Sequence record: MT446386.1
From: Escherichia virus TH06
DNA: 64,000 nt
Direction: 5' to 3' (one strand)
Made by a program: the position numbers and the translations under genes. Position 1 is the first letter of the stretch. Each line of letters begins with the position of its first letter. This document shows positions 3-45,283 of this stretch, piece by piece. The notes under the pieces were generated by a model. That model was not told the DNA's origin. It made no database searches and worked only from the letters and a program-made list of their open reading frames with translations.

Positions 3-1327
<1,325 letters not shown>

Positions 1328-15260: not shown

Positions 15261-18255
15261 ACTCTATCGTTAAACCATTGATAGCAGCATTACTGTTAAC
15301 ATCATTATCTATAACATTATAGAAAAGGTATGGATGGTTCAGCCTCACAGAGACATGCCTGTCAACACCAATTGTATAAGTCTTCGATGTGTGTGGGTGT
15401 CCGTATTCATTTGAGAATTGACTACCACCAGCTTCAAATATGTAAGTACCTGAACCGGTTGTCTGAGGCCGGAACCTGTTAATATGCTTCTGATTCCACT
15501 CATTAGTCACATTATCAAAATCTATACCAGTCCTCTCCAACCTCATTTCCAGAGGCTTCTCTATAACAACATCATTTAGCCTGTCATAGAAATAATCAAG
15601 AGCACCTACATCCACTTGATAGAATCCCTTCAAGAATGAACCTACTATCGTAACCCTCTGTCTAAAGTTTGTTGCATCCTTTCTCCAAACGAGTTCTTTA
15701 ATAGATGGGTCATCCCAAGTGATTTCTTGGAAGTCAGACCAGATTGGACCTCTTTCTAAAACAGGAGGATCAACCAGACCAATACACTGAGCATATGGTA
15801 TAGTACGGAAAGACCAAGTATCAAACTCGTAGTTCCATACAGCAGCTTTAGTACAAGCGAAGCTTTCTTTTGGCTCCCCCGGTCCTACATAGAGAACCCA
15901 AACTTCTTTCTTATCCTGATGCAAGTGCACTCGAGTTGCTAGAGGGTTAACCAGACACACCTCGTTAATCAGCATATTCTTGACACGGTTAGATGCAATT
16001 GACTTCTTGGTTGCACCATTATGCAAGATTACATCATTCTGAGTAACTACGAAATGACTACCTTCTACTTCAACCACGCACTCAGGAGCAAGGATACCAG
16101 AGTCGTTAAAGAGCTTCTTGAACATTAGAGGTTGGTACGTGTTATTAGTCGGAGAACCAATATACGTTTCAAACTCTGTATAAACGAACAAGTAATCTTT
16201 AAGAGGTAGGATATCAATCAAGCTACCATTAGAATCTGCTAGATCAATATAACCAGCATACCCATTCTCTAGAGCCTGAGTCTGACCTACGATGTTAGAA
16301 GCTAAGTCCGAAGACACAACTCGATCATAGGCAAAGTCATCCCACAGTGTAGGAGCCTTGTTCTCATTGGCAAAGTTAGACCAACGAAGACGAAGCGGAT
16401 AGTTAGTGGTAACACCAGAAGCATTAGCTTCTCTCATATTCAGAGCAAAAAGACGGTTGTTAAAAGATCTCACTCTCTCACATTTCCAGTTAAACTTCTT
16501 GACTGAAGGGTTTCCATCATTATCCACAACTGTTTGCTCACCCCATCCCGGAAGATCTACAAAGTATTCTGATTCGAATTCTTTTACCTGAGGAGTTTCA
16601 TAGTGAGTTGTAGCAACTGCACAGTTAGAGATAACAGCATGATACCAAGGATAGTCATCAAAAGCATCGTAATCTTTTTGAGTCATCTGACTAACAGTAC
16701 AAGTTACGTTAATCTCTCCTTTACGAAGAGCAACCAGTTTGATAGATTTACCAGTAACTGAGGTTGTAGAAACATAACCAGTCTTATCAACAGACCACTG
16801 ATAGGAGTACTCACCTTCCGGAGAAGCTGTGGCTGTAACAACAATCTCTTCACCAACATCAAGAGAAGCGCTGACAATATCTAAGGTGACAGATGACAAA
16901 GGAGTTGCGAGTAAAGAAGCTCTTGCAAAACCTTCAATGTCATTCACGTTAGAGTAGTCGTAGAAGTTGTTACCTTCATACATCCCTGACGTATCAATAC
17001 CGGATGTAGGCTCAGCAAAATAAACCGTCTCTTCACTTTCAGGAGGAGTTACTACTTCTTCCTCTTGAGTTTCTACTGACTCTGACACAGGAGCGGCAAA
17101 TGCCATAGCACTTGTTCTCATTGTCCTTCCAGCTAAATCCACACGTACAATACAGACAGCAACTCTGTTACCTTCTTCAGTGGTAGCTGTAATCTCAGTA
17201 AAACCAGCAAGTAGAGCGTTGATCGTCCCTTGTGTACTAGTCCCTGATACTGTTGCAATATTTGGATTAGAAGAGGTCCAAGTAATATTTTGATTAGGGG
17301 CGTTAGCAGGAGAAAGGGTAGCAGTTAAGATGTACTGAGAACCTCTACTCACAGTAACATCTGACTGGCTTAAAGAGATACTATCAATCTGAGGGATAGA
17401 AACAATCTCACAAGAAGCAGTCTTAGTCCCGTTATCAGCAGTGATTGTTACATTACCTTCTCCATTCGCTGTAATGACAGCAGTTAAAGAGTTGGCGTTA
17501 GGGGTTACGGATACAATAGAAGCGTTACTGCTGGACCAAGTTACAGGAGTCTTGCCAGTAACAGCCGTGAGAGTAGTAGTCCCTCCCTTACGAATTGTAA
17601 CAGTATCTTGACTCAAGAAGATGCCTGAATCACCATCTATGATATTAACAGCAATCTGAGCCACTACGGATTCATTGGCAGTAGAGATAGTTACTACAAG
17701 ATTACCCTCTTTCTCAAAAGATGTTAGAGTAGCAAGTTTAGAGTCACTAGGGTCTACTGTAATACTTCCATAAGATGAGTTACTAACCTCCCAAACAAGA
17801 TCAGTATTGTTGGCATCAGCAGGAAGAAGAGAAACCTCTAGATTCTTGGTCTGATTGAAGTTCATTGAGATGGTTGATTCTTTAGGAACAATCTGAGAAA
17901 CAACCGGATAAATCTTAATTGAGGCAGAAGCCTTTTTAGTGACTGTAGCAACCTTACGGCTAATATCAGTCAAGCTTTCATCTGTCAGTTTATATAACTT
18001 CTTATCCGTACCTACAACAAGAAAGCTATTACCTGCGCTATAATAATCGAAAGGCATAGAAATGAAAGACAGAGGGGTTAAATCCTTATCTTCATCTACA
18101 TAAGAAAGAGGGGCATTGCCCCCCGTCTTAAATACTCTCTGCTCAACAAACCGAGCATTTATAGCATTAGTGAAAGCATTAGGAGCTAAGTCTGTCGGAG
18201 CCTGATCAGCGATAACGCCTACAGCACCTAATGACTTTATTGGATACAGCGCCAT
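15238..18255 (-). CDS. large tail protein with Ig-like (Big_2-type) repeats
   Basis: 1005 aa; several Thr/Ser-rich beta-strand repeats resembling bacterial Ig-like domains. Confidence 0.45.
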   Translation of the reverse strand: MALYPIKSLGAVGVIADQAPTDLAPNAFTNAINARFVEQRVFKTGGNAPLSYVDEDKDLTPLSFISMPFDYYSAGNSFLVVGTDKKLYKLTDESLTDISRKVATVTKKASASIKIYPVVSQIVPKESTISMNFNQTKNLEVSLLPADANNTDLVWEVSNSSYGSITVDPSDSKLATLTSFEKEGNLVVTISTANESVVAQIAVNIIDGDSGIFLSQDTVTIRKGGTTTLTAVTGKTPVTWSSSNASIVSVTPNANSLTAVITANGEGNVTITADNGTKTASCEIVSIPQIDSISLSQSDVTVSRGSQYILTATLSPANAPNQNITWTSSNPNIATVSGTSTQGTINALLAGFTEITATTEEGNRVAVCIVRVDLAGRTMRTSAMAFAAPVSESVETQEEEVVTPPESEETVYFAEPTSGIDTSGMYEGNNFYDYSNVNDIEGFARASLLATPLSSVTLDIVSASLDVGEEIVVTATASPEGEYSYQWSVDKTGYVSTTSVTGKSIKLVALRKGEINVTCTVSQMTQKDYDAFDDYPWYHAVISNCAVATTHYETPQVKEFESEYFVDLPGWGEQTVVDNDGNPSVKKFNWKCERVRSFNNRLFALNMREANASGVTTNYPLRLRWSNFANENKAPTLWDDFAYDRVVSSDLASNIVGQTQALENGYAGYIDLADSNGSLIDILPLKDYLFVYTEFETYIGSPTNNTYQPLMFKKLFNDSGILAPECVVEVEGSHFVVTQNDVILHNGATKKSIASNRVKNMLINEVCLVNPLATRVHLHQDKKEVWVLYVGPGEPKESFACTKAAVWNYEFDTWSFRTIPYAQCIGLVDPPVLERGPIWSDFQEITWDDPSIKELVWRKDATNFRQRVTIVGSFLKGFYQVDVGALDYFYDRLNDVVIEKPLEMRLERTGIDFDNVTNEWNQKHINRFRPQTTGSGTYIFEAGGSQFSNEYGHPHTSKTYTIGVDRHVSVRLNHPYLFYNVIDNDVNSNAAINGLTIEFAVGGRR

Positions 18256-34933: not shown

Positions 34934-35658
34934 AAGTTCTCTTTCAACCTTATATATAAGAGTTTAAAATTCTGATTTGACTGAGTAGGGCTAGCCGCTT
35001 CCCGCGCGTTTCCTAAAAGGGGGGAGTCCTCATTTAAAAAAGGGTTATTGGCAATGCCTTTACCTTCCTTTTCAACGTTCCACTTTTCCCCGTGCCTACT
35101 CCCCGTTATTCTTTCCCCGTGTATACCATCCTATTCATTAGCTACCCGTTTATTTAGTACCCCTTTAAAGAGTGAGAGAAAGGCTATACTCTGATAACGG
35201 TCTGTTAAGGCGTGATAATAACAGGTCTAATAATACCCCTAGTTACTACCCCATTCCCCCATAGTTACGTTGATAATAGTTTCAATAGTAATGATTATGA
35301 GTGCAATAATGATATATGTATTAATTAAGTGGATGATTGTGTTTCTTTTATTCTTTTCTTTTTCAGCGTGCCTTTGTGAGCGTAGCGAACGTCTTTGATG
35401 TTTGAGTTATACAATTATTTAAGTGGTATATTATTACCGCACTATCTTGCTATGTTTCCCCGTGGTCTGTTCTGCGGTTGTGTGTTCCCCGTTTGCCCTG
35501 GTCTGTTGGTCTGCTACCCGTAGCACCAGCGTAACACCCGTAGGATTAGTGTTATAAAGTAACAATAGCTAGTAAGCTGATTCTCTGAGTATGGAAAGTT
35601 TAGTAAATTAAATTCCTTTAGTTTTCAGTGAGTTATAAGAAAGTTAGAAAATAAATGG

Positions 35659-35686
35659 TTGACAGGTTTTTCCTTTATTATATAGT
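35659..35686 (+). promoter_or_regulatory. sigma70-type early promoter
   Basis: TTGACA, 16 nt spacer, TATAGT; A-rich upstream; about 45 nt before the ATG at 35731. Confidence 0.5.
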
Positions 35687-35730
35687 TGCGATTGTAATTT
35701 GTAGTTTTCATCAACCATAAGGAATATCAA

Positions 35731-36628: not shown

Positions 36629-36892
36629 ATGGCTATCAAAGAAGTTAGATTATCTAATGGCTATTCTGTTTTTGTTGGCGATACCGCTATCACGTTTAAT
36701 CTGCGTCATGGTCAGTTAACGTTGCCTGTTGTTACTTTCTGCGTTATGGATTTTAAACAGGCTAAAAATTGGCTATCTGCTATCGGCGTTGAAATTAACC
36801 GTGATGATTTTCGTTCTATATATTTTGACGGTGGCTTGTCACTGGCTAACCTGCTCAATCATGGCCTTGTTGGAGGTGGCACTAATGGGTAA
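36629..36892 (+). CDS. hypothetical protein
   Basis: ORF with RBS GGAG upstream. Confidence 0.45.
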   Translation: MAIKEVRLSNGYSVFVGDTAITFNLRHGQLTLPVVTFCVMDFKQAKNWLSAIGVEINRDDFRSIYFDGGLSLANLLNHGLVGGGTNG

Positions 36893-37139: not shown

Positions 37140-37243
37140 TGATTCATGATTATTTTTGGCGTTGCTTGTTCGTTGTTACAGTGGCGTTATTCGTCGCTGA
37201 TATGCTTTATTCTTATATTCTCTAACTATAGGTGATTATTATC

Positions 37244-37609
37244 ATGGGTATTATCAAATTTGTAGTAAAAGTATTCGTGGGCTTCTTCCTTGTCGTTCTC
37301 CTGCTGGGTGTGCTCCTATCGGCTATGGGTAGCGTTAAGGCTGCAACATTCTCCCCTGCTACGGTTGACGGCTTGCAATGTACTTATCTTGTAGAAAACT
37401 ATGAAACCGGTAAAAAGTCACCTAAAGTTATTATTTTGCATGTAAATGATTTCGATCATGTGCAATCATATGATAAAACTGTTCAACTGGTAAATGAAAC
37501 AACCGGTAAACAAGTCATGATTGATCACTTGATGCGCTCATCGTTAACGCTCTTTGATGAGTCCATGAATGAAATTGAATCCGGTAACGGTCAATGTGTA
37601 AATCCATAG
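37244..37609 (+). CDS. secreted/membrane protein
   Basis: RBS AGGTGA 9 nt upstream; N-terminal signal-like hydrophobic region. Confidence 0.45.
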   Translation: MGIIKFVVKVFVGFFLVVLLLGVLLSAMGSVKAATFSPATVDGLQCTYLVENYETGKKSPKVIILHVNDFDHVQSYDKTVQLVNETTGKQVMIDHLMRSSLTLFDESMNEIESGNGQCVNP

Positions 37610-37685
37610 GGTTACTATTTCTGCTTTATTGTGCCGTGGTCATGCCTATGGTCATAATTTATCTGATACTTTAAAACCTTCCTAT

Positions 37686-37709
37686 AAGCCTCGCTATGAG
37701 GCTTTTTTC
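37686..37709 (+). terminator. intrinsic terminator
   Basis: AAGCCTC-GCTAT-GAGGCTT followed by TTTTTT. Confidence 0.65.
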
Positions 37710-37913
37710 ATTTCTAGGGTGATTGTATGGCTTACTCCCTTTTAGCTCGCTACAGTGCGTTTCAGGCCGCTTATTATTGCTTTACAAGCCGTTTTCTATG
37801 ATGTATCACGCGCCCCCGCTCTTTTACCTCCTGATTTCTTCCGGTGTCCTACCGACAATAAAATAAATTCCTTTATAAAACAGTGAGATGAAAAATAATT
37901 TGAAAAAAGGGTA

Positions 37914-37941
37914 TTGACATGATTTTCCTTTATAGTAATAT
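37914..37941 (+). promoter_or_regulatory. sigma70-type promoter with A-tract UP-like element
   Basis: AAAAAAGGGTA TTGACA, 16 nt spacer, TAATAT; spacer resembles that of the 35659 promoter. Confidence 0.5.
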
Positions 37942-38070
37942 GAATCCCGTAGTAAGCAGTAAGTAACAACAAGTAGTAAAAACTCCTCGATAGGTGATTA
38001 GCATCACGGTAAAAGGCTTCAACGGGGAGCGGTAGGAATACCGACAGTAAGACGCACAATGAAGGTGCTA

Positions 38071-38084
38071 CGCTCTTTAAAAAT
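38071..38084 (+). repeat. copy 1 of CGCTCTTTAAAAAT motif
   Basis: Exact 14-mer. Confidence 0.6.
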
Positions 38085-38119
38085 CAGGCTAGAAAGTGAA
38101 AATATTCTTAAAAAGAGTA

Positions 38120-38148
38120 TTGACACCAGAAAAAGCCTGATACATAAT
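38120..38148 (+). promoter_or_regulatory. sigma70-type promoter
   Basis: AAAAAGAGTA TTGACA, 17 nt spacer, CATAAT; downstream GAGCACTCA nearly identical to the 38608 promoter. Confidence 0.55.
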
Positions 38149-38179
38149 GAGCACTCATTCAGCGATGAATCAAAACATC

Positions 38180-38194
38180 CCGCTCTTTAAAAAT
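38180..38194 (+). repeat. copy 2 of CCGCTCTTTAAAAAT motif
   Basis: Exact 15-mer followed by ATGA. Confidence 0.6.
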
Positions 38195-38449
38195 ATGATT
38201 TGTCTTACAGGTGGCGGTAACGTCATTACTATAAGGCGCTTAGTTGATCGCTAGAATTGATTCCTGATTCATACGTGAATAGGCGGACGAAGAGCAACAA
38301 AATAAGCCTCATTTGTTCGATACTTTCAAATGGTCGATGCTTGAAAGCGCACTAGATTCCTAAAAGACAAATCAGACTTATCATCTTGCCCTTTCGCAAA
38401 GATTCAAGCGAGATAAGGGAACGGAATAAAAGAAGATGATAAAAAGAGT

Positions 38450-38477
38450 TTGACAAGCTAACACGATGTGTTAAGCT
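38450..38477 (+). promoter_or_regulatory. sigma70-type promoter (weaker -10)
   Basis: AAAAAGAGT TTGACA, 16 nt spacer, TGnTAAGCT extended -10. Confidence 0.4.
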
Positions 38478-38489
38478 GTAAATGCTCCA

Positions 38490-38504
38490 CCGCTCTTTAA
38501 AAAT
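38490..38504 (+). repeat. copy 3 of CCGCTCTTTAAAAAT motif
   Basis: Exact 15-mer followed by ATGA. Confidence 0.6.
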
Positions 38505-38607
38505 ATGAATCATAAGTTTAAGCCTCACCGCTTAATCCTCAATCAAATAAAGCTGATTGATATATCCTCCCAATAGCGGGAACGACGAAAAAAGATTAAA
38601 AAAGTGG

Positions 38608-38636
38608 TTGACAGCGAAAACAACATGATTCATAAT
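38608..38636 (+). promoter_or_regulatory. sigma70-type promoter
   Basis: AAAAAAGTGG TTGACA, 17 nt spacer, CATAAT. Confidence 0.55.
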
Positions 38637-38725
38637 GAGCACTCACTAAGCAAATCACCGCTTCAGTGAAAAGCGCAACAACGGCTAACAGTTGCATAGC
38701 GTGAGAAAGCACGCTGATAGGTTTA

Positions 38726-38740
38726 CCGCTCTTTAATAAT
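38726..38740 (+). repeat. copy 4 (variant) CCGCTCTTTAATAAT
   Basis: One mismatch relative to the other copies. Confidence 0.5.
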
Positions 38741-39557
38741 TTAAACATTCTCCTATATCGGTTGAATATGCTTGATGATAATAACCATCGGAAAGCATAC
38801 CAGATAAAACGGTGTAAGATTCTCTAAACTATCAGAGAAAACAATCTTACAATCCCTTGCTGGAAACGTCACCACTGATAAACGGATTCATTGAGTGTAC
38901 GCAAAGACTTAAGCTAATCGCCCACGGTTAAGGGTAGCGGCGGTCATCGCTAACAAGGCGCTACAGTGAAAGAAGTTAATCAGGGTAGGCAAGCCCGAAG
39001 AATTAACGCTCAATTGAGAGCGGCGGGGAGTGGTTAAAAAGTGGCAAATTGCTATTTAACAATAAGGTTTAGTGTGAACGTTTACGATGTGAATGATTTG
39101 AGGCCACTATCGATGGCGTACATAGTCAGTTTATGTAGTAAACTTGCCGAAAGATATAAAACGTCAGAACATTAGACGGTCAATGACTCTTTCACAATAG
39201 CATCCCGTTGTGGGCGATGGCTAGTGATTGAGAGTTGATACAAAAGGATAGGCGAGAGCGAAAGCAAAGTAGACGATATTGCCGACGGTTACAATAAACG
39301 TAACTAATTAGAGTCGGACGCACTGCCTTATTGTGATGATTGATCATCGCTATCAGGTCGGCTTCGTTTATAGCGACTAATTAAAGATACCAGATGAAAC
39401 ATCACGGATAAGGGGGCGGCAAGGTTAACTCCTGATAAGACCGCCCCGCTTATCAATAATTACTTAACAATGAGTGGTTATTGATAAGTTAATAGTGACT
39501 TAAACAAGCTCATAGAGAGCGGGGCAATAGCGCCCTTACAATTGAAAGGTGAATATC

Positions 39558-40457
39558 ATGGCTAAAGTTTTTACTCTGGTTAACGAATCTGGTTTTAATG
39601 CACTGGCTAACAACATTCGTAGCAATAACGCGGCGATCAAACAAGATGTCTCTAACTTCCTGTTAGGGCACTTACAGCACTTCCGCAGTAACGGTAAAAA
39701 GCTGGACGTATTGCAGACGGCGGTTGACTTCTTGTTAACTGAACGTTTTCGTGATATGGATGTGATTGCCACTGCAATTACTTTCTTAACTCCTATCAAG
39801 TTTAACACTGATGCGGCAAATGGTCGTAAAAAGTGGATTAATCTGGAAGGTGAGGCGAAAGCTAAAGAAGACGCGAAAGAAGCGCAAATTAAAACCAAAA
39901 TGGAACAAAACCGCGCTCGCTGGTCAAACGCTTTCGAAAACTTTGCTTTAGGCCGTGAAATTGAAGTCGATAACCCTAACTTTTACAAGGGTTGCAATGA
40001 CAATGTGGCGGCACACCTGCAAATCCCGGCGAAAAACAAGGAAGACTTTAACCAAGATATTTACGCTTTGGTTGAACGCTTGAATGCAATCCGTATTGAA
40101 GCCAAATTACTGGCTGATGAGCGCAACGGTGCAACTAGTGATAACACTATCGCCCTGAGTGAAGAAGTAGGAAAGGTTAAGAAATCTTTTGATTCACTCA
40201 TCAAGAAAGTCACGGCCTCAACGGTAGCGATCTCTGATAACTACCTGATGAACGCATCAAGCAAGGAATTAGAATCACTCGATTCATACGCTGATGAAAT
40301 GGAAAAGACTGTTGCAGCTATGCAGGAGAAGTTAGAAAGTCTGCGCGGTCGTATCTCTTCAACGGTTGCTACCCGTACCGAACAAGCTGCGAAAGCAGAA
40401 GAGGAAGAAGTATTGCGTAAAGCGGCTGAAATTATGGCGGCACGTCAAGCGGCATAA
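39558..40457 (+). CDS. hypothetical coiled-coil protein
   Basis: RBS AAAGGTGA 7 nt before the ATG; track start 39549 is GTG. Confidence 0.5.
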   Translation: MAKVFTLVNESGFNALANNIRSNNAAIKQDVSNFLLGHLQHFRSNGKKLDVLQTAVDFLLTERFRDMDVIATAITFLTPIKFNTDAANGRKKWINLEGEAKAKEDAKEAQIKTKMEQNRARWSNAFENFALGREIEVDNPNFYKGCNDNVAAHLQIPAKNKEDFNQDIYALVERLNAIRIEAKLLADERNGATSDNTIALSEEVGKVKKSFDSLIKKVTASTVAISDNYLMNASSKELESLDSYADEMEKTVAAMQEKLESLRGRISSTVATRTEQAAKAEEEEVLRKAAEIMAARQAA

Positions 40458-40481
40458 GTAAGACAGTTTAAATAAACATAA

Positions 40482-40514
40482 GGTGCTATCTTAACGGGTA
40501 GCGCCTTTTCTTTT
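40482..40514 (+). terminator. intrinsic terminator
   Basis: GGTGCTA...TAGCGCC hairpin with one G-U pair followed by TTTTCTTTT. Confidence 0.5.
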
Positions 40515-40568
40515 ATCAGTGCATTGATTCAGTGCATTAATCAAAGAATTTAATCAAAGGTGATGATC

Positions 40569-40787
40569 ATGTTAATTACGCATACCACGATTTATAGGAA
40601 TCTTGTCAACGGTCAACATTACCGCCTATCTAAAAAGTATGGCGTTGAATGTAAATGTGTTATTACCGGTGAATGGTATCCGTCACCAATGAAGATTGAA
40701 ACGTTGGAACGTGAAGCGATCAGCTATATTATCACGCAAGAAACAACGTTAGGCCGTATCTTAAGAAAGTTGGGATTGAGAAAATGA
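40569..40787 (+). CDS. hypothetical protein
   Basis: ATG with AAAGG RBS; track start is GTG at 40560. Confidence 0.4.
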   Translation: MLITHTTIYRNLVNGQHYRLSKKYGVECKCVITGEWYPSPMKIETLEREAISYIITQETTLGRILRKLGLRK

Positions 40788-45207: not shown

Positions 45208-45283
45208 GCGCTCTTAGCTCAATGGATAGAGCAGTAGCCTTCTAAGCTATTGGTTACAGGTTCGAGTCCTGTAGGGCGCACCA
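45208..45283 (+). tRNA. tRNA-Arg (anticodon TCT)
   Basis: Hand-folded cloverleaf: acceptor GCGCTCT/AGGGCGC with one G-U, D-arm GCTC/GAGC, anticodon stem GTAGC/GCTAT, loop CTTCTAA, T-arm ACAGG-TTCGAGT-CCTGT, encoded CCA. Confidence 0.7.

Follow-up and report, generated by a model that had tools for sequence, protein, structure and literature searches.

Why would a densely coded phage keep about 1.9 kb of DNA without a gene, carrying several strong-looking promoters and a short repeated motif? The question is raised by a spacer in the genome of Escherichia virus TH06 (sequence record MT446386.1), of which we have analyzed one stretch of 64,000 nucleotides, referred to here as the window. An earlier annotation made from the letters alone (the original prediction) had described this spacer, located at 37620-39540, and had proposed as candidates a set of short non-coding RNAs, a strong-promoter array that recruits the host RNA polymerase early, or sites belonging to the origin or bound by a phage regulator. 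We consider it probable that the region is an early transcription cassette built like the leader of a ribosomal RNA (rRNA) operon, in which each promoter would load the host Nus complex through its own copy of boxA, so that the polymerase could cross a folded leader RNA and the following gene (gene 124) without Rho termination.

The spacer is 93% identical to its counterpart in Escherichia phage phiEco32, which separates genes 125 and 124 (NC_010324, 72784-74740, minus strand), and 92-97% identical to those of about 40 other Kuravirus-like coliphages (96 phage records match overall). By these similarities the window is assigned to a phiEco32-like Kuravirus and the gene-free region to its 125-124 spacer. 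phiEco32 serves as a model in the study of transcription control, having a sigma factor of its own (gp36) and a sigma70 inhibitor (gp79), and its 2-kb spacer has so far been treated only as a site of early promoters. In all annotated relatives ca. 1.9 kb at this place are devoid of any credible gene. The earlier claim that the plus strand holds no open reading frame (ORF) of 60 aa or more is borne out, the longest one within 37700-39540 having 47 aa; on the minus strand, an 87-aa ORF (37796-38059) is not conserved as a gene in annotated relatives. The comparison of the spacer with 5,426 complete E. coli genomes gave no similarity, so that a host origin is not supported.

The repeated motif

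The exact 10-mer CGCTCTTTAA is found four times in the 64 kb, always on the plus strand (at 38071, 38181, 38491 and 38727), compared to 0.18 copies expected by chance, and none of 100 shuffled sequences reached four. A search with a 15-mer allowing up to two mismatches returned the identical four sites, confirming a motif that had been noticed in four copies at irregular spacing. All four match perfectly the gamma-proteobacterial boxA consensus GYTCTTTAANA (PMC5725501), which occurs six times in the window against 0.51 expected; the two other matches, at 15693 and 31650, are antisense inside long late minus-strand ORFs and were treated as chance. The phage versions, cCGCTCTTTAAAAAT and cCGCTCTTTAATAATTTA, are identical or nearly so to the host GCTCTTTAAnAATTTA; in the sequences themselves, the rrnB leader of E. 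coli K-12 has cacTGCTCTTTAACAATTTA and lambda nutL has CGCTCTTAAAAATTAA. In three relatives (L033, L034 and L043) the last copy, ACTGCTCTTTAACAATTTA, is identical to rrnB over 19 nt. Judging by its sequence, the repeated motif is boxA, an identity that appears to be unreported: nothing in the accessible literature, which did not include the primary phiEco32 papers, ties phiEco32 or Kuravirus to boxA, early antitermination or non-coding RNA.

Relatives were obtained from GenBank and IMG/VR (17), from metagenomes (3) and as distant uncultured loci (8, with gp124 homologs 49-70% identical). The distant loci form two groups, in which gp124 is ca. 70% and ca. 49% identical. Scans of IMG/VR and metagenomes with the gp124 peptide or an invariant 25-mer returned close relatives only, and the distant ones came from a protein search followed by contig look-up. 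Every relative collected has 2-5 perfect boxA copies in its spacer, with 78 in 19 genomes and more in the 8 distant loci. Over 63 distinct copies with very diverse flanks, position -1 was C in 56, +11 was A in 62 and +12 was T in 57. This test of core and flank conservation is partly circular, since the copies were gathered using the consensus; the conserved positions located outside the search pattern (-1, +11 and +12) agree with the rrn sequence. The surroundings of the fourth copy (TTTACCGCTCTTTAAyAATTTAAAC) were invariant in 19 sequences.

Promoters and promoter-boxA order

The four promoters with a TTGACA hexamer and an A-tract at 37914, 38120, 38450 and 38608 are all present as had been stated (P1 to P4, Table 1), the A-tracts directly 5' of them being gaaaaaagggta, ttaaaaagagta, gataaaaagagt and ttaaaaaagtgg. 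P2 and P4 match 11 of 12 consensus positions and do share their -10 and start region, with CATAATGAGCACTCA in common, while P3 (TAAGCT, with a TGn extended -10) scores under the threshold of the scanner. A generic promoter scan of the window was not enriched (16 found vs. 15.7 expected from shuffles), and the promoter calls are supported instead by the perfect -35 hexamers, the conservation in relatives and published predictions. The SU10 genome paper described three sigma70 promoters in this spacer, as in phiEco32, and the early promoters of its Table S2 include the homologs of P2, P3 and P4, with P1 not listed, i.e., three of the four are already published as predicted early sigma70 promoters. 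The proposal of a strong-promoter array recruiting the host RNA polymerase early fits these predictions for SU10 and phiEco32.

P4 was found in every relative, 940-1040 nt ahead of the gene 124 ATG. P1 is present in phiEco32, SU10, EK010 and L007 and missing from many relatives. The inter-module segments 38195-38377 and 37948-38070 likewise occur in only some relatives, and the promoter-boxA modules number from two to five, which suggests that whole modules have been repeatedly duplicated and deleted. The segment 38195-38437 is mosaic and therefore probably dispensable.

The arrangement of promoters and boxA was counted in 23 genomes with gp124 49-100% identical, the promoters being predictions. 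A boxA was found before the next promoter for 65 of the 68 predicted spacer promoters, two of the three exceptions being due to a weak, overlapping promoter call in between. All spacer copies are on the plus strand, 8-434 nt 3' of the inferred starts, and in the 8 distant loci, scanned whole (1,991-10,954 nt), there was no minus-strand boxA. A signal acting at the RNA level requires this alternation, because a boxA located 5' of a promoter lies outside the transcript of that promoter. As a DNA-binding site, such a strict promoter-then-boxA order is hard to explain. A repeat of 14-15 nt at irregular spacing in a gene-free region could also be taken as a series of sites for phage or host proteins or as origin iterons, the resemblance to boxA being then coincidental; the original prediction had included regulator or origin sites among its options. 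We regard such a DNA-level role as very improbable because of the orientation and position of the motif, always in the sense strand and 3' of a promoter; it also matches perfectly a consensus defined on RNA function, that of the site bound by host NusB/NusE, and some copies share 19 identical nt with rrn boxA.

The RNA just 5' of boxA tends to be folded, with a mean minimum free energy of -5.9 kcal/mol vs. -2.7 kcal/mol for shuffles. The tendency is not universal, as 63% of 90 contexts fold at -5 kcal/mol or below and the P3 copy has almost no upstream RNA. On the 3' side no hairpin shared by the boxA copies was found, the downstream sequences differing among the four. These observations bear on a lambda-type nut system, in which the boxA copies would be the halves of nut sites used with a phage N-like antiterminator, and intrinsic terminators such as that at 40480 would be suppressed too. 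A candidate for this protein would be gene 124, which comes first after the sites just as N does after nutL. The layout is indeed similar, with boxA just 3' of an early promoter and 5' of the first early gene, as in nutL and nutR and in the order pL-nutL-N; gene 124 always accompanies the cassette, and it is followed by a terminator with no strong promoter before the next gene. In addition, boxA1 resembles nutL including part of the flank, the two having in common the spacer AAAAAT and the 5' ATGAAGGTG. This 9-mer precedes boxA in lambda nutL (lambda record 219-260, minus strand) and in copy 1 (window 38058-38084) and is in both part of a small hairpin just 5' of boxA; it could be due to chance or to shared ancestry. 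However, the enrichment in folding is on the 5' side and not on the 3' side, where boxB lies in lambda nut sites, the copies are several and tend to the rrn order, and searches with gp124 yielded neither a Pfam family above threshold nor a PDB match in sequence or fold. Lambda N has an arginine-rich stretch, and the N-terminus of gp124 has none of that kind; no N-family protein was recognized, gp124 alone having been screened. A lambda-type mechanism is unlikely, given that no boxB was found and that gp124, the protein screened, is not recognizably N-like.

A structured leader RNA

The leader, from the inferred P4 start to the gene 124 ATG, was aligned in 19 sequences. The alignment contains frame-breaking indels, 11 of the 19 sequences have no plus-strand ORF of at least 30 aa, and neither a conserved ORF nor a 3-base periodicity of the substitutions was detected in the alignment. 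The consensus fold obtained with RNAalifold has 240 pairs in 38 helices with compensatory changes at 72 pairs, compared to 34 +/- 3 in shuffles and 5-10 when the partners were slid. Paired cells amounted to 99.1% (93.6% in shuffles and 34-47% with partners slid). The fold is strand-specific, as indicated by 463 G.U cells vs. only 14 A.C cells, and the RNAalifold energy is -251.5 in the forward direction vs. -169.7 for the reverse complement. The leader of the window alone folds at -282.8 kcal/mol (z = -8.5). Unpaired columns are slightly less variable than paired ones (37% vs. 41.5% of the columns varying), as expected for a functional RNA.

The structure was also kept in sequences that had not been used to build it. 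A profile of the alignment detects the leaders of the distant relatives (E from 1e-111 down to 9e-12), and in the 8 held-out distant leaders 71-83% of the pairs are canonical, compared to 33-47% with partners slid, each of them having 11-60 pairs altered on both sides and yet canonical. A covariance model of domain II (R1) found exactly one plus-strand match in the window and in each of 26 relatives; in the alignment of this domain 59 of 77 pairs have compensatory changes and 98.1% of the cells are paired. With compensatory changes, strand specificity, absence of a coding signal and a structure preserved in held-out homologs, the segment 38643-39557 is a large structured non-coding RNA of ca. 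0.9 kb, conserved across about 100 sequenced coliphages and in more distant uncultured relatives. It appears to be unreported. Rfam 15 at the gathering score gave in the window only the tRNA at 45208, and up to E = 10 over 37600-39600 the best match had E = 0.49, the models being eukaryotic miRNA or snoRNA ones far under threshold.

The transcript from P4 would carry two hairpins near its 5' end, the second of which (helix 2) covaries at 3 of its 6 pairs, with GCGTG, GTGTG, ACGTG, AAGTG and AGGTG all compensated. Then comes boxA4, directly adjoining the 5' strand of the helix that closes domain I (helices 4-17 in the consensus, with compensatory changes in many). The 3' hairpin row that follows domain II ends at the ribosome-binding site of gene 124. 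While the number of modules and the inter-module segments vary among relatives, the last module is constant, and 825-936 nt without a conserved ORF separate the last boxA from the first start codon. A boxA look-alike with one mismatch, GCTATTTAACAAT (39051-39063), does not vary among the 19 aligned relatives. It is part of the inter-domain hairpin and extends into the closing helix of domain II, and its mismatch is at C4, a position reported as critical for boxA.

Pairing between the 5' flank of boxA4 (ATTTACC, 38721-38731) and the Shine-Dalgarno region of gene 124 (GGTGAAT, 39544-39554) would span the entire structured RNA. This duplex (helix 3, -7.8 kcal/mol, p ~0.05-0.1 vs. shuffles) is kept in 19 of 19 sequences, a G-to-A change in Bas88 and TH34 converting U.G to U-A, and no covariation was detected in it among the 19. 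The pairing is weakly supported.

The plus strand has no terminator-like site between 37705 and 40480, and transcription from any of the four promoters should for this reason continue through the leader and gene 124, giving one long RNA. The suggestion that each promoter makes a short non-coding RNA independent of the others had in its favor that every promoter precedes a short conserved element of its own. That element is boxA, however, an antitermination signal and so the opposite of a stop, no terminator-like site separates the modules, and the segments between them are mosaic and partly missing in relatives. We find a single structured leader of ca. 0.9 kb instead, and hold the short RNAs to be hardly credible. 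Another possibility is that the array acts as a sink for Nus factors and RNA polymerase, diverting NusB/E, SuhB and polymerase from the rRNA operons and aiding host shut-off, with the RNA being secondary. The promoters look very strong, the boxA sequences equal those of the host, and transcripts from P1 carry up to 4-5 copies. A sink would nevertheless leave unexplained why the last boxA keeps a fixed distance to gene 124 and why the leader covaries so heavily, and some relatives have only two copies, all of which makes it quite improbable.

The structured RNA could also be a replication element, i.e., a strong-promoter transcript that folds and primes or activates the phage origin like ColE1 RNA II or as in transcription-activated phage origins. 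A long structured RNA made from strong host-type promoters ca. 3 kb from a genome end, with a G-rich stretch at 38980-39100, would fit this idea. On the other hand, the GC skew changes sign at 35.0-35.5 kb, coinciding with the switch in gene orientation, and not in the spacer, where the original prediction had placed a possible origin; the G-rich strand takes part in helix 4, an RNA-RNA helix that covaries; and no repeats besides boxA were noticed in the sequence or the alignments, in which no dedicated repeat search was made. We give this explanation little weight, although it is compatible with the identification of boxA.

Proposed transcription of the cassette

How could promoters, boxA and leader work together? 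The four tandem sigma70 promoters with consensus -35 and A-tracts would recruit the host RNA polymerase. The boxA RNA would then bind NusB/NusE(S10), nucleating the Nus complex (NusA, NusG and SuhB) on the elongating polymerase, as in rrn, CRISPR leaders and suhB, and the complex would make the polymerase Rho-resistant. Such resistance would matter because ca. 830-915 nt of untranslated RNA precede the first start codon, that of gene 124. With one boxA per promoter, every polymerase would be modified. Untranslated RNAs as long as this one are natural substrates of Rho, and C-over-G stretches are found at 38460-38900. If rRNA is a guide, the long-range helices may also form more readily while boxA is tethered to the polymerase. 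Stand-alone E. coli boxA recruits NusB/NusE and the rest of the Nus complex and shields rRNA and CRISPR transcripts from Rho (Stringer 2020; Baniulyte 2017). The same complex keeps the RNA 5' end attached to the polymerase and favors long-range pairing. The cassette itself lies ca. 3 kb from one genome end. Complexes of the rrn type have about double the elongation rate of ordinary ones, and T7 draws its genome into the cell partly by transcribing from strong early promoters; faster elongation and genome pull-in would both suit a cassette in this position.

Several points weigh against such an rRNA-style cassette. The accessible literature, which did not include Savalia 2008 and Pavlova 2012, contained no transcript mapping, Nus-binding or Rho data for this phage. 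The boxA of P3 is only ca. 8 nt from the inferred start, compared to ca. 35-40 nt in the rrnB P2 leader (our own estimate). P1 and several inter-module segments are absent in some relatives, and four modules are hence not essential. No boxC was identified in the phage, where it was not searched for systematically. Complexes of the rrn type suppress Rho-dependent termination far better than intrinsic termination, and if they spare intrinsic terminators the hairpin at 40480 would limit read-through into the later early genes. Finally, the heavy structure and the G-rich composition of 38980-39300 could by themselves keep Rho off, making boxA less necessary.

The E. coli rrn leader has tandem promoters P1 and P2 with UP elements, followed by boxB-boxA-boxC and then by the 16S rRNA. 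The phage cassette resembles it in its tandem strong sigma70 promoters with upstream A-tracts, in the hairpin predicted just 5' of many, though not all, boxA copies (the order boxB-boxA, seen also at boxA4) and in a product that is a long, untranslated and highly structured RNA with long-range closing helices. It differs in belonging to a virulent phage, in having one boxA per promoter in 2-5 modules, and in its RNA of ca. 0.9 kb, which is not rRNA and is directly followed by protein-coding early genes. The boxA of CRISPR arrays and of the suhB 5' UTR (Stringer 2020; Baniulyte 2017) has the same consensus; it is stand-alone, acts without a phage protein and shields long untranslated RNA against Rho. 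In these chromosomal loci it is present as a single copy, whereas the phage has tandem promoter-boxA modules in a lytic genome.

As for the RNA, it recalls GOLLD, ROOL, OLE and HEARO in having several hundred nt, many covarying helices, sequence-conserved loops and a phage origin. Unlike them, it is a 5' leader of an early operon behind boxA, belongs to E. coli podoviruses and lacks an Rfam match (E up to 10). Among structured phage RNAs, the phi29 pRNA and the HK022 put RNA are also made by the host polymerase from early promoters near a genome end. The put RNA (ca. 70 nt) renders the polymerase termination-resistant in cis without Nus factors, and in protein-primed phages pRNA (ca. 170 nt) belongs to the packaging motor; no resemblance of our leader to either in sequence or structure was found, no comparison aimed at them having been made. 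The leader RNA might serve gene 124 as a leader acting in cis, or it might be processed into a stable non-coding RNA. We propose tentatively, as a possibility to which we would not give even odds, that the leader (0.83-0.9 kb) represents a previously undescribed class of large structured phage RNAs with its own function, e.g., as a processed stable RNA or ribonucleoprotein, possibly with gp124, and that the phage co-opts the boxA/Nus complex, which the host dedicates to the transcription, antitermination and chaperoning of rRNA, to make and fold it. If this holds, it would be the first example of stand-alone rrn-type boxA modules serving a virulent phage in the production of a structured RNA that is not ribosomal.

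An rrn-grade boxA behind every promoter provides a testable account of how early transcription could cross almost 1 kb of untranslated RNA despite active Rho. A lytic phage would thereby be added to rRNA, CRISPR arrays and suhB as cases of boxA-only, N-independent antitermination. The identity of boxA and the structured leader are directly testable in a tractable E. coli phage, and the function of the leader RNA can be studied because the host system is genetically tractable E. coli. For phage engineering and therapy (SU10, BASEL Bas87-94 and others), the spacer should not be used as a free site for insertion or deletion.

Features and surroundings of the spacer

The coordinates are collected in Table 1. 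The terminator that had been placed at 37686 is there, with its stem and T-run, and the homologous one is annotated in SU10 and SU7.

Table 1. Elements of the spacer and its borders (window positions; promoters and transcript starts are predicted)
Feature	Position	Strand	Description
Intrinsic terminator	37686-37713	+	End of upstream early operon (homologs of genes 128-125); stem 37686-37704, then TTTTCATTTC
Promoter P1	37902-37941	+	A-tract; -35 TTGACA 37914-37919; 16-nt spacer; -10 TAATAT 37936-37941
boxA copy 1	38070-38084	+	aCGCTCTTTAAAAAT; ca. 124 nt after inferred P1 start; small hairpin just 5'
Promoter P2	38108-38148	+	A-tract; TTGACA 38120-38125; 17-nt spacer; CATAAT 38143-38148
boxA copy 2	38180-38194	+	CCGCTCTTTAAAAAT; ca. 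27 nt after inferred P2 start
Variable inter-module segment	38195-38437	+	38195-38377 in only some relatives (BLAST against relatives)
Promoter P3	38438-38477	+	A-tract; TTGACA 38450-38455; 16-nt spacer; TGtTAAGCT extended -10 38469-38477
boxA copy 3	38490-38504	+	CCGCTCTTTAAAAAT; ca. 8 nt after inferred P3 start
Promoter P4	38596-38636	+	A-tract; TTGACA 38608-38613; 17-nt spacer; CATAAT 38631-38636
Two 5' hairpins of P4 transcript	38679-38715	+	Second at 38698-38715, loop AGAAAG, just 5' of boxA4
boxA copy 4	38726-38740	+	CCGCTCTTTAATAAT; 825-936 nt before gene 124 ATG in all relatives
Domain I	38740-39038	+	Ca. 300 nt, multi-branched; closed by long-range helix 38740-38752 / 39026-39038
Invariant inter-domain hairpin	39039-39057	+	Helix 18; with following bases carries GCTATTTAACAAT
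Domain II	39059-39334	+	276 nt; closed by helix 39059-39068 / 39325-39334
Row of 3' hairpins	39335-39536	+	Helices 30-38; includes invariant GGCGGCAAGGTTAACTCCTGATAAG
Shine-Dalgarno and ATG of gene 124	39544-39560	+	AAAGGTGAAT; may pair with boxA4 5' flank 38721-38731
Gene 124 homolog	39558-40457	+	299 aa; first gene after leader; alongside leader in every relative examined
First terminator-like hairpin 3' of promoters	40480-40516	+	12-bp stem and TTCTTTTATC; annotated terminator in SU7

A few records have genes annotated inside the spacer. The NJ01 record has a small coding sequence (CDS; L015, 2436-2603) called "cathepsin L-like cysteine proteinase A" (55 aa), that of SU7 a 66-aa hypothetical protein (L017, 2150-2350), and in CHD5UKE1 11 hypothetical proteins were called. 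None is common to the relatives and they are probably spurious. Upstream, two early proteins, at 37232-37609 (125 aa, with a hydrophobic N-terminus) and 36629-36892 (87 aa), carry the RefSeq/PHROG names "terminase" and "polymerase", respectively; these have no Pfam support and look like propagated mis-annotations. At 35000-35700 the minus-strand genes yield to the plus-strand early genes, with a gene-poor stretch of ca. 0.8 kb in front of a promoter at 35659 that has the consensus sequence. The two genome ends are probably joined here, as the comparison with phiEco32 suggests. A tRNA/tmRNA scan of the window found only the tRNA-Arg at 45208.

The product of gene 124 belongs to phrog_13018, a PHROG of unknown function, with homologs down to 46% identity, and its AlphaFold model (pLDDT 75) predicts a mostly helical protein. 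The next gene starts at 40569, just past the hairpin at 40480 and with no strong promoter between them, and the expression of the early genes after gene 124 may depend on read-through. Salmonella phage 7-11 (L031, 88864-89916), taken as a more distant phage for comparison, also has ca. 1 kb without genes at its right end, upstream of gp151. In the 8 kb of this right end there was neither a boxA consensus nor a match to the covariance model R1. The gp151 of phage 7-11 begins with the same ATCATGGCTAAA as gene 124.

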